In this document: one piece after another, positions 1 to 3,000 of the stretch
Numbering within the stretch: the stretch's first letter is position 1
Layout: each line of letters opens with the position of its first letter
DNA from: a virus
Lineage: Duplodnaviria > Heunggongvirae > Uroviricota > Caudoviricetes
Strand: one strand, 5' to 3'
Length of the DNA stretch: 13,210 nucleotides
IMG/VR virus record: IMGVR_UViG_2671181040_000012
Made by a program: the position numbers

Positions 1-3000
1 ATGGCACGAAAAACCACTCCACTAACCATCACGGAGATCAAAAATGCACGACCAGGAGAAAAAGAATACACCCTGCAGGATGGCGGAGGATTGTTTCTTC
101 TGGTGAAGCCCTCCGGATCAAAAATCTGGCGCTTTACGTATTACCGACCCACTGACAAAAAACGAACCATCGTTAGTCTTGGTCCGCTGAATGATGTTTC
201 TCTGTCAGAAGCCAGAGAGCGACGAAACGAATACAGGGGACTTATAGCGAAGGGAGTTGACCCACAGGACCACGAACGCCGGAAACGTGAAGCAGAGAGC
301 CGGAAAAAGGGCAACACGTTCGAAAAAGTTGCCTCTGACTGGTACGAGATGAAAAAAGGCCAGAATCTCGCTTACAACACGATTAAGGATATCTGGCGAT
401 CCATGGAAAAATACGTATTCCCGCACATCGGAAAAACGCCAATAGATACCCTCACCGCTCGCCGCTTTGTTGAGATACTCACCCCCATTAAGGCGCGTGG
501 CAACCTGGAAACCCTGAAACGCGTTTTACAGCGCATCAATGAGGTGATGGATTTTGCTGCCAACAGTGGTCTGATTGACATCAACACCGCCGCGAACGTC
601 CGTAAGGCATTCCCTACCCCCACCAAAAAGCACATGCCAACCATCCGACCGGAACAGCTACCGCAGCTAATGCACGATTTATCGGTCGCCAGCATAGAAC
701 GGCAAACCAGATTGCTGATTGAGTGGCAGCTACTGACCGTAGCACGCCCCGCCGAAGCAGCCGCCACACGCTGGGAAGAAATAAACCTCGATGCCGAAAC
801 CTGGACGATTCCAGCCGGACGCATGAAGATGCGCCGTGACCATGTGATCCCCCTTTGTGGTCAGGCTATGGCTGTACTGGAAACCATGAAGCCAATCAGC
901 GCACACAGGGAACACGTTTTTCCCAGCCTTAAAAACCCGATGCTGCCAATGAGCAGCCAGACCGCTAACGCCGCATTGCGCCGGATGGGTTACGCTGGTG
1001 TGCTGGTGTCTCACGGATTACGCGCCATATTCAGCACAGCAGCGAACGAGGAAGGATTCGAACCGGACGTAATCGAGGCCGCGCTCGCACACGTGGACAC
1101 GAACGAGGTAAGGCGAGCATATAACCGAAGTAACTACCTGGAAAAACGTGTAGTACTTATGCGCTGGTGGGGTGAATTTGTGGAAACCGCAGCAACCGGA
1201 GTGACCATAGCCAGTGGTAAAAGGGGTATCCGTGCGGTGTGACTGTACAAAAAACCAGTACAACCAGTGCAAACCATGCTAAACCATCGTATAATCGCCT
1301 ATCTCCTCAACAGACAAGGAAAAACCCGACTCATGAGAAATCGAGATTTATTGAAATGGTCTGGCACGAAAAATCATCCAATGTCTGCGGTGAAGGGCTG
1401 CAACTGGCGTTAATGGCAAATCGTGAATTCTGGTCAACATACGATCCGGAAGACAAATCAACAGCCCCCACAAAACACGAGGTAGTCAGTTTTTTACGCT
1501 CGCGTGGCGCATCGAAAAATCTGGCTGAAAGCATCGACAAGGTGCTGAGGCCCACCAGCCTTAAATGTGGTGGGCGACCTAAGAAGTGGAAACGGTAATC
1601 ACAATAGCGGCCCCTTGCGGTCGCTATTTTTTTGCAAAAAGAAAGCGTAATCAATGAGATAAAAAACAGTGAGTACCGTTTTAAAACGGTGAGTACTGTT
1701 TTTCCCGCCCTGCCCTGTTTTACCGTATTTATCACCGGAATACGCCGGATTAACGAGGTAAAACACGATGGAAGTAATCAGAAAAATTCTTACCCGTCAG
1801 GAAGTAAAAAATATTCTGCGCATCAAGGCAGACAGTTCGCTACAGGACATGATCAACGCCGGAAAATTCCCGAAAGGCTTCAAAATCGGTCTGCGTCGTG
1901 TTGGCTGGTATGAAGATGAAGTGCTGGCCTGGCTGAAAGAGCGCGAGGAAGAAGCGCGCGGAACGGCTGCGTAATGGTGTGAGGCGTAACGCGATGAACA
2001 TAACAAAAAGCGCCCCGTTGCCGGAGCGCCCTTGCGAACAATTAACCTACTGCGCAAAAAATGAATCAGTGCAGTGGGATTATATCAACCGTGTAGCGAA
2101 GCGCCACAATTGCCGGATAACAGGCAAAACAAAGGCCACCTGCTACGGTGGCCATTCGACACAAGCTACACGTTATCCCCAACGCATGAGCATTGCCAAC
2201 AATGCCACATTTGCGGCTGGTGGGCAATGTGATCAGTGTGCTGGCTTGCTGGTGGGCTATTCCTGCTCTTTAACATCGTCATGCCGCGATGTTTTCCAGG
2301 TATGCGATCCCATTTTTGTGCGCCTGTACTCTTTTAAGAACTTCTCAAGGGCAAACGCACATGGCGCAAATCTCTCCTGTTCTTGTTCGCTTACCGCATT
2401 TTTGCGTTGTTTTTTCCTGGATGAGGATAATTTCTTTAATGATTTGTCAGTCATCGTAGATACCTGTAACCCAGTGCGCCACAGTTCACCGCACCACAGC
2501 GCTGGTGATGGTTACTCCTGCTCTTTGGCCTTGCGCCGCTGGCGGCGTTTGATCTCGCCTTCTAATGCTGCTGTTACAAACTGCCCTGTACTTTCGCCTT
2601 CTTCTTTAACCTTATCCATTGCATCAACGATATGGAGTGGGACACGTGCATCTATTCTTTTCGATTTTGCATTTACTGATTTCGTTGCCATCTCTGATTT
2701 CCGATTGGTTTGGTGTCCGACAATGATAGCGATAAAAAAGGTTAATGCAATGCTTGACGTGTCCCACACCATTAAAATAACATGTGTCCGACACTTGATT
2801 TTTATCAGTAATGAAACGACGAAACCCCGCACTGTTGGAGCAGTAACGGGGCTTCTAACCAAACCGTTAACTGGAGTAACGATTATGGCTGTAAGACAGC
2901 ATACCCCACGCCTGGCGCACACACAAACCGCCTTTGTGTGGCGTTTTCTGGCACTGAGTGCCGGAGAATCCCAAATCATCCACGTCACCGCATGGACGGA

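Follow-up and report, generated by a model that had tools for sequence, protein, structure and literature searches.

Where does the signal of a helper phage reach the master switch of a phage satellite, and what stands between that switch and its neighbouring genes? The question is raised by a 13,210-nucleotide stretch of caudoviricete DNA (IMG/VR record IMGVR_UViG_2671181040_000012; the whole stretch is called the window below), which, by its gene content and the order of int and alpA, is a satellite of the Gram-negative phage-inducible chromosomal island (PICI) type. AlpA is the master activator of PICIs (PMC6092414, PMC11773190), and the region from int to alpA has been termed their integration zone (PMC10111431). 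With alpA as the master switch of Gram-negative PICIs, what looks like a conserved gate in front of it gives a handle on how helper phages switch satellites on. A sequence-only reading of the window had drawn attention to the segment between int and alpA, and comparison across related islands gives two results that are firm at the level of sequence: a conserved, previously unannotated gene family linked to alpA, whose member here is called X, and a precisely delimited operator, called operator A, at the master switch itself. The mechanism that joins the two is what we infer. The operator is a 40-bp element conserved across diverged satellites, and it is where the turn-on signal most likely acts.

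Operator A and the leader of alpA

Three features make up the operator, which is located 66-105 bp upstream of the alpA ATG:

1663-1682, no strand assigned: operator A unit 1, distal, AAAACAGT-GAGT-ACCGTTTT, with pentamers at 1666-1670 and 1675-1679
1683-1702, no strand assigned: operator A unit 2, alpA-proximal, AAAACGGT-GAGT-ACTGTTTT, with pentamers at 1686-1690 and 1695-1699
1675-1690, no strand assigned: 16-bp perfect palindrome at the junction of units 1 and 2, perfect in the window's clade only

The palindrome ACCGTTTTAAAACGGT (1675-1690) had been noticed in the sequence-only reading and is indeed present downstream of the open reading frame of X. It had been described as flanked by direct repeats; the repeats are real, but they are better seen as two adjacent 20-nt units, AAAACAGTGAGTACCGTTTT (1663-1682) and AAAACGGTGAGTACTGTTTT (1683-1702), which are identical at 18 of 20 positions and of which the palindrome is only the junction. 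Each unit is itself a dyad of the form AAAAC[A/G]GT-N4-AC[C/T]GTTTT, that is, a core of ACNGT-N4-ACNGT between A/T-tract flanks. When the window was simulated 500 times with a first-order Markov model, 98 of the runs gave a perfect palindrome of at least 16 bp, and the real sequence itself has a second perfect 16-bp palindrome at 11293-11308 (TACCGGGATCCCGGTA), so the palindrome is not significant on its own. An adjacent 20-mer repeat matching at 18 or more of 20 positions appeared in none of 200 simulations, and the significance of the operator comes from its conservation across 31 distinct related sequences.

These 31 sequences are the distinct spacers between X and alpA that were picked by homology to X and not by the operator. 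In unit 2, AAAACGGT and ACTGTTTTT are invariant in 31/31, and the N4 alone varies (GAGT, GGGT, TGGT, AGGT, GGGA or GACT). Unit 1 is looser, with a left pentamer of ACAGT, ACGGT, ACTGT, ACGTT or ACGAT and a right pentamer of ACCGT or ACAGT, and it is precisely deleted in two natural variants (L111 and L115). In L008 the palindrome measures 15 bp, and in the clade of the Nissle and O26 islands it reads ACCGTTTAAAAACGGT; its centre is TTTTAAAA, TTTAAAAA or the 1-bp-shorter TTTAAAA. This last form, in L008, brings the two units 1 bp closer together, while the 9-bp spacing of the pentamers within a unit is constant throughout. Constant spacing inside the unit and a changing palindrome centre argue that the functional unit is a 20-bp dyad, AAAACNGT-N4-ACNGTTTT, present twice, and the palindrome as functional unit is rejected on the same ground.

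The half-sites of the operator are identical between clades whose Int, AlpA and X proteins are 82%, 76% and 64-66% identical, respectively. Among 14 elements examined individually, the dyad unit was found only upstream of alpA, and it is absent from both attachment-site (att) arms; a role as an integrase arm-type site, with Int as the binder, is rejected accordingly. As judged from this conservation, operator A is a strongly conserved operator of the transcription-factor type. Its position upstream of alpA, its conserved half-sites set among variable spacers and flanks, and its occurrence at that place only make it very probably a control site for alpA. The earlier suggestion of an alpA control site thus holds for the element as a whole and fails for the palindrome, whose centre varies. 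The layout of two tandem dyads suggests two dimer sites on one face of the DNA.

Some natural variants of the region deserve mention. In L008, an island at another tRNA-Pro next to eptB, about 400 bp (2745-3150) are inserted between the X terminator and the operator, and this insert, with four tandem TTTTGAGACAACAT-type repeats and inverted TGTTGTCTCA copies, has an iteron-like look. Among the IMG/VR variants, L115 has a nonsense codon in alpA and L117 a frameshift in X; in L094, L109 and L090 the reading frame of alpA is interrupted within a run of A, a break that may be due to decay or to sequencing error.

Downstream of the operator, a variable stretch of about 13 bp is followed by an invariant block, a second repeat element (motif B) and the Shine-Dalgarno sequence of alpA:

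1716-1730, plus strand: invariant block TG(T/A)TTTACCGTATTT, with a fifth ACCGT and with TACCGT (1721-1726), the one -10-like hexamer that is conserved; putative promoter role
1733-1752, plus strand: motif B, two conserved 10-bp direct repeats, CACCGGAATA and CGCCGGATTA (CACCGGAWTA); three copies in L007 and L113
1755-1974, plus strand: Shine-Dalgarno GAGG (1755-1758) and alpA (1768-1974, 68 aa; Pfam Phage_AlpA)

No conserved sigma-70-like promoter was found upstream of alpA, the best candidate reaching at most 5.7 of 12 matches. The hexamer TACCGT is the only conserved one in a usable position with A2 and T6, and it has no -35 partner. If it serves as the -10 box, transcription would start near 1733, and the centres of the two units (1692.5 and 1672.5) would come to lie at about -41 and -61, where class II and class I activators bind; the operator would then most likely be the point at which a turn-on signal acts. 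With an invariant proximal and a dispensable distal unit, the pattern agrees with one essential site close to the promoter and a second, auxiliary one further away.

The alpA promoter is silent without a helper in other E. coli PICIs (PMC6092414, PMC11773190). With EcCICFT073, an induced lambda or phi80 prophage turns on an alpA plasmid reporter in island-free cells; with EcCIMP1, induction persists in an alpA mutant and AlpA adds positive feedback; and AlpA activates its own promoter in both islands (PMC6092414, PMC11773190). The helper-phage inducer of alpA was left unidentified in the 2018 PICI paper (PMC6092414) and is not named in the later literature that we searched. Two published inputs, helper and AlpA, and two conserved repeat elements in the present leader would allow a natural one-to-one mapping.

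The distribution of motif B over the islands bears on this mapping. In the Nissle and O26 islands, three 10-bp-phased copies of CACCGGA abut the att core in attL; two further copies lie between the att core and int in both clades, and none is found in the attR arm next to the core. (The CACCGGAWTA repeats are at 1733-1752 in the window, at 7591-7620 and 7685-7712 in L002 and at 12674-12712 in L001; the core-adjacent copies of the window's own island are degenerate.) A third motif, motif C or TAG(C/T)TA(C/T)ACG (TAGYTAYACG), occurs in four copies just upstream of int, two direct and two inverted, and twice more at a distance of about 65 bp from the core of attR (coordinates in L001 are 12716-12767, just outside the left end of the window, and 27098-27120; those in L003 are 7716-7767 and 16262-16283). 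Between the two integrase clades, which are 82% identical, a single base of the motif differs. Excisionase sites, as those of lambda and L5 Xis, are phased direct repeats on one att arm next to the core, and winged-helix proteins of the AlpA/Xis type typically bind 10-bp phased direct repeats. Motif C stands on both arms, as integrase arm sites do, and is probably made up of integrase arm-type sites, while CACCGGAWTA, phased on one arm by the core where an excisionase must bind, is probably the binding site of the excisionase-type AlpA. With Int and AlpA assigned in this way to other motifs, the dyad operator is left without an assigned island protein, and motif B as a second element probably separates AlpA's own binding from the outside signal.

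Gene X and its family

The small terminated gene that had been proposed between int and alpA is present, and it is accompanied by a predicted promoter:

1250-1295, plus strand: X promoter region, four AAACC repeats phased at about 10 bp, then a perfect -10 box, TATAAT (1290-1295); the -35 is weak
1356-1598, plus strand: small gene X, 80 aa, WP_000262088.1, known from purifying selection, homologue alignments and a family of 654 clusters
1603-1635, plus strand: intrinsic terminator of X, with a 10-bp stem and 6-nt loop (1603-1628), then T7

The longest open reading frame begins with a GTG (1239-1598, 119 aa), and an in-frame ATG gives a shorter form (1356-1598, 80 aa) that corresponds to the RefSeq annotation, WP_000262088.1. 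Where the sequence-only reading had allowed anything from 80 to 119 aa, only the lower figure holds up. The short form is conserved and is the RefSeq one; the 119-aa form is rejected, since its N-terminal extension is not conserved as protein and holds the gene's own conserved -10 box. The frame upstream of the ATG is open back into int in 9/9 loci examined, with a translated extension that is not conserved, and its openness is explained by conserved promoter DNA together with about 20 variable codons.

Homologues of X fall into two clades with about 64-66% protein identity between them. The first 10 or so residues are variable, and the conserved core reads EGLQLALM..EFWSTYDPEDxxTAPxKxEVVxFLxSRGxSxNLAxSIDxVxRPxxxKxGGRPKKW, with conservative replacements. 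Over 64 aligned codons the clades differ at 16, 9 and 36 sites at codon positions 1, 2 and 3; the nonsynonymous divergence (dN) is 0.19 while synonymous sites (dS) are saturated, and within clades dN/dS is 0-0.3. Given this codon-position pattern, the low dN beside saturated dS and the conserved core, X is a real protein-coding gene under purifying selection. Alignment of the intergenic regions across related islands, one of the checks proposed for the locus at the outset, shows a frame conserved as coding (16/9/36, dN 0.19) and conserved operator half-sites.

Both clades and the L008 island have kept the promoter block of X, and this conservation ends immediately after the -10 box. Conservation that runs up to TATAAT and then stops is a promoter signature, and it excludes a start at GTG-1239. 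A consensus promoter scan missed this promoter, its -35 being poor, but on the conservation pattern X has its own, predicted, promoter at 1250-1295. The AAACC repeats within it follow directly on the int stop codon, and they might curve the upstream DNA or serve as another array of sites for a protein. At the other end of the gene, the terminator folds with -14.3 kcal/mol (z = -3.25), and at the same place the other clade has a different stem, GAAGCGGCA/TGCCGCTTT, with -15 kcal/mol and a U7 tract. The terminator is thus kept by structure and not by sequence, and it is predicted to insulate alpA from int and X transcription. An own promoter and a conserved terminator would make X an independent, insulated transcription unit. 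An Rfam scan of 1100-2600 gave sub-threshold chance matches only.

The protein offers few clues to its activity. X has no match in Pfam, NCBIfam, PHROG(s) or PADLOC and no relative in the PDB, fold and sequence searches with X and with a long-form relative returned nothing significant, and a literature search by its accession found no match. An AlphaFold2 model (predicted local distance difference test score, pLDDT, 76) has helices at 11-26, 40-49, 54-64 and 67-70, the second and third of which form a helix-turn-helix-like pair in the model, without a significant fold match. The tail, GGRPKKWKR, combines GRP with basic residues and lacks the first R of the AT-hook core R-G-R-P. Two candidate identities were tried and rejected: a diverged AlpA paralogue (3.6% in hhalign against AlpA) and an anti-phage defence gene (no PADLOC match).

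The gene had also been taken for variable cargo in a slot where satellites often carry it, and this does not agree with its distribution. Using the operator pattern, 46 IMG/VR satellite contigs were found; 44 of them and three annotated islands are full-length and were searched for genes. X, AlpA and Int are all encoded in 46/46 full-length operator-bearing satellites, and conversely the operator or a close variant is present in all 52 contigs found through X. With purifying selection acting on it and distant homologues at the same position upstream of alpA, X is, on this comparative evidence, a fixed core part of the int-alpA module.

A profile search with X over 1.8 billion representatives gave 654 clusters at 50% identity, 35 of them at E <= 1e-10. 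Nearly all members are 190-280 aa long and carry the X domain as their C-terminal ~60 residues, with the consensus (WPWG)xHxTxLLxxLxxAAxxFWxxYDPxDxxTAPxNxxVxxWLxxxGVSxxxAxxxAxILRxDGLxTG(P/R)RK; these long proteins are likewise without annotation. The E. coli X is the conserved C-terminal domain only, a stand-alone copy of the ~60-aa domain FWSTYDPxDxxTAPxKxxVxxxLxxxGxSxxxAxxIDxxLRPxxLKxGGRPKK. Most family members end exactly at the G(P/R)RK tail, and one metagenomic protein, P0017 (385 aa), has two tandem X domains.

Nine genomic contexts were informative for synteny. In 8/9 of them (L011, L012/L013, L014, L015 from Sedimenticola, L016, L017, L018 and the window's own family) an AlpA/HTH_17 gene follows the X-family gene immediately, and on contigs that extend far enough a P4-type integrase gene precedes it. 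The exception is L019, where the X-family gene is followed by an unannotated 80-aa open reading frame and a primase; the contig of L010, which is not among the nine, ends at this point. This adjacency argues that X is a conserved partner of alpA, and, as far as sequence and gene order tell, X belongs to a large, previously unannotated protein family linked to alpA. The X-alpA spacers of the distant relatives contain repeats that are unrelated in sequence and share no architecture. A conserved but unannotated alpA partner, with relatives beside alpA in distant Proteobacteria, has a domain that merits definition as a family.

Candidate readers of the operator

Our preferred reading, which we put forward tentatively, takes positions 1239-1767 as the gate of the satellite's master switch, with the dyad operator receiving an external turn-on signal. 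X, with its own predicted promoter, ends at a strong terminator that keeps int and X transcription out of alpA. Two dimers of one regulator would occupy the two units on the same DNA face, and the operator, at about -41 and -61, would be the point where the turn-on signal acts on an otherwise silent alpA promoter. The source of that signal would probably be a factor of the helper phage or the host and not part of the island's own repertoire. AlpA would probably bind the separate 10-bp phased CACCGGAWTA repeats (1733-1752, and also in attL), and X would be a conserved alpA partner that sets or modulates the threshold. That the binder of the operator is an external helper-phage or host factor is itself a possibility held with some reserve; it is favoured because the half-sites are invariant across diverged clades and because published work points to a direct effect of helpers on the alpA promoter. 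Several points weigh against this scheme. The -41/-61 geometry depends on one weak hexamer, TACCGT, and unit 2 would overlap the -35 region, a position equally good for a repressor. Motif B lies downstream of the predicted start, where one would hardly expect a positive autoregulator to bind. The search for a phage or host protein with the operator's specificity found none: BLAST of the region against 50,697 phage genomes gave no match, and an IMG/VR scan for unit 2 outside satellites gave only scattered single matches, in about the number expected by chance on a rough estimate. To our knowledge, none of the sites of LexA, CRP, FNR, PurR, TrpR, TyrR, IHF and lambda cI fits the operator. X and AlpA both accompany the operator in 46/46 satellites, and both are therefore possible binders; covariation of operator variants with variants of X or AlpA was uninformative, the putative contact regions of both proteins being conserved. 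A third resident, the ribbon-helix-helix-like (YlcI/YnfO) protein named in the sequence-only reading, is an unlikely binder, for it is absent in 13/46 operator-bearing satellites and present in EcCICFT073, which has no such operator.

A rather unlikely alternative makes X the resident repressor: produced constitutively, it would place two dimers on the dyad units and hold alpA off until a helper-phage protein inactivates it, its GGRPKK tail sitting in the minor grooves of the flanking A/T tracts, as a Gram-negative counterpart of the Stl protein of staphylococcal pathogenicity islands (SaPIs). The strict co-occurrence and adjacency of gene and operator (46/46, with X on every operator-bearing IMG/VR contig), the constitutive-looking promoter and own terminator of X, and the place of X-family genes directly upstream of AlpA/HTH_17 in 8/9 distantly related contexts all speak for it, as do the AT-hook-like GRP core with basic flanks in the tail, the invariant A/T tracts flanking the half-sites and the overlap of unit 2 with the would-be -35 position. 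The E. coli X, however, lacks the putative DNA-binding N-domain and consists of the C-terminal domain only; no DNA-binding fold is detectable in it, its most conserved helix bears invariant acidic residues, EcCICFT073 has no X and is still helper-inducible, and a promoter with no -35 and a poor -10 scarcely requires a repressor. In a broader and unlikely version, X founds a widespread family of alpA-linked regulators and acts here as a resident brake, either a repressor at the dyad operator or an anti-activator of AlpA, that the helper neutralises. If this were true, induction of these satellites would be de-repression, as in SaPIs, and not pure activation. The dyads might instead be the sites of AlpA's positive autoregulation, which we consider rather doubtful: a little AlpA at -41/-61 would recruit RNA polymerase in an all-or-none switch, and motif B would belong to another protein such as Int or X. 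Self-activation by AlpA is published for EcCICFT073 and EcCIMP1, the geometry is activator-like with no -35, and AlpA, present in 46/46 satellites, is the only protein here from an established DNA-binding family. Yet AlpA is also needed for excision, and no site like operator A occurs near attL or attR or elsewhere in the island; it is motif B and not the dyad that stands in attL, and the phased direct repeats of Xis-type proteins match motif B and not a 5-N4-5 dyad. EcCICFT073, moreover, has 10-bp phased direct repeats and no dyads upstream of alpA, and in L014 AlpA is 68% identical and yet both motifs are missing. That nothing here is functional, with the palindrome and repeats a product of chance or slippage, or else an RNA hairpin or attenuator, and the reading frame spurious, is highly improbable. 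A perfect 16-bp palindrome does arise by chance in about 20% of simulated windows, a scan marks 1674-1691 as terminator-like, and the gene has no family annotation; but the codon-position pattern and dN/dS of X, its 654 homologous clusters with conserved synteny, the invariant half-sites and variable spacers of 31 sequences whose neighbouring synonymous sites are saturated, and the adjacent 20-mer repeat in 0/200 simulations all go against it, and as RNA the palindrome would be a weak A/U-rich stem whose centre varies while its arms do not.

The island and its counterparts

A stretch of E. coli MB06102 matches the window with 100% identity. The window starts at the int start codon, and the tRNA-Pro gene, 209 bp upstream (in L001) and outside the window, lies between yejM and yejO. 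At its left end the satellite thus has

1-1242, plus strand: int, a P4-type tyrosine integrase (Pfam Arm-DNA-bind_3, Phage_int_M, Phage_integrase), adjoining the tRNA-Pro attL

and about 14.6 kb downstream, at its right end, a second copy of the att core, CTCTCGTG..ACCAAA, which gives an island of ~14.6 kb. After int, the small hypothetical gene X and alpA come two minus-strand genes, one of them YlcI/YnfO-like, followed by an icd-like gene, DUF4222, a DUF927 primase, a single-stranded DNA-binding protein (SSB), ProQ/FinO, PerC, an orphan F4 fimbrial subunit, the terminase small subunit (TerS) and a second PerC. DUF4222, the primase, SSB and TerS represent a replication module and packaging-hijack genes, and no tail or lysis genes are annotated in the island. 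The alpA product matches the AlpA family PF05930 with 33.3 bits (gathering cut-off 21, E = 4.5e-8). The int-X-alpA module is found in 374 of 5426 complete E. coli genomes (~7%), including Nissle 1917, ATCC 25922 and O26:H11 11368, and the modules downstream of it differ, with TerS-only and capsid-carrying islands and with DUF927, RepA or other primases. Just past alpA, on the minus strand, a strong terminator with a 12-bp stem (2006-2033) is oriented for the minus-strand genes (a 65-aa open reading frame and the YlcI/YnfO-like gene); alpA has no plus-strand terminator of its own, and its transcript would run into the convergent genes. The cargo includes the orphan F4-family fimbrial subunit gene (8463-9275, minus strand), without usher or chaperone, and the two PerC-family regulator genes (7563-7850 and 12902-13210); PerC-like genes of another PICI have been reported as repressors of the locus of enterocyte effacement (LEE) island (PMC11773190).

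The closest counterparts are EcCICFT073 and EcCIMP1, with which the window shares a P4-type integrase gene by a tRNA att site and a co-oriented alpA downstream, then a replication zone (DUF4222, DUF927 primase, SSB) and hijacking genes (TerS) (PMC6092414, PMC11773190, PMC10111431). In those islands the alpA promoter is silent without a helper and positively autoregulated, and the promoter in the window may behave likewise. The four-zone scheme of PICIs has only Int and AlpA in the integration zone (PMC10111431), and no description of X or operator A was found in the PICI literature that we searched. Unlike the window, EcCICFT073 lacks ACNGT dyads, and its alpA follows int with no gene in between. 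The spacer there (L021 9161-9525) holds AACAAC and GACACAA repeats phased at 10 bp, together with a hairpin that is conserved, GGCATAAAA...TTTTATGCC; this place is filled by another arrangement, which may include a small RNA. The window shares GTACTGTTTTT with that spacer, which we take as a coincidence, since other members of the EcCICFT073 family read ACTGG or GCTGG instead.

Activator promoters of the combined class II and class I kind (FNR/CRP type) have dyads at -41.5 and -61.5. The present operator resembles them in its 5-N4-5 dyad core, sites 20 bp apart, lack of a -35, essential proximal site and auxiliary distal site; it differs in its half-site, ACNGT as against TTGAT for FNR and TGTGA for CRP, and its positions are predicted ones. 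Motif B, with phased head-to-tail repeats by the att core on one arm and a winged-helix protein of the AlpA/HTH_17 kind encoded in the island, is like the X1-X1.5-X2 sites of lambda Xis and the sites of the Xis proteins of mycobacteriophages L5 and Pukovnik. Lambda is not known to have a second set of copies in the leader of its excisionase gene, and the likeness concerns motif B and not the dyad operator. In the Pf4 prophage (Pf4r/XisF4), an AlpA-type excisionase is likewise the master activator, and its expression is under the control of a small regulator gene beside it; there the two genes are divergent, and Pf4r is a cI-type helix-turn-helix repressor with no known homology to X. The Pseudomonas AlpA antiterminator with its ABE was considered and set aside as not comparable, being a larger, different protein with a GGGACG site between -35 and -10.

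If X were a repressor, the nearest parallel would be SaPI Stl, a resident protein that keeps the lytic programme of its island off at one operator next to int until the helper releases it (PMC6092414). There is no sequence or fold relation between the two, stl is transcribed divergently from its target whereas X has the orientation of alpA with a terminator in between, and the target promoter here looks activator-dependent. By comparison with these systems, the module represents one variant form of the int-alpA zone of PICIs, and it may work as an activator-dependent promoter with an insulating terminator, and less probably in the manner of SaPI Stl.

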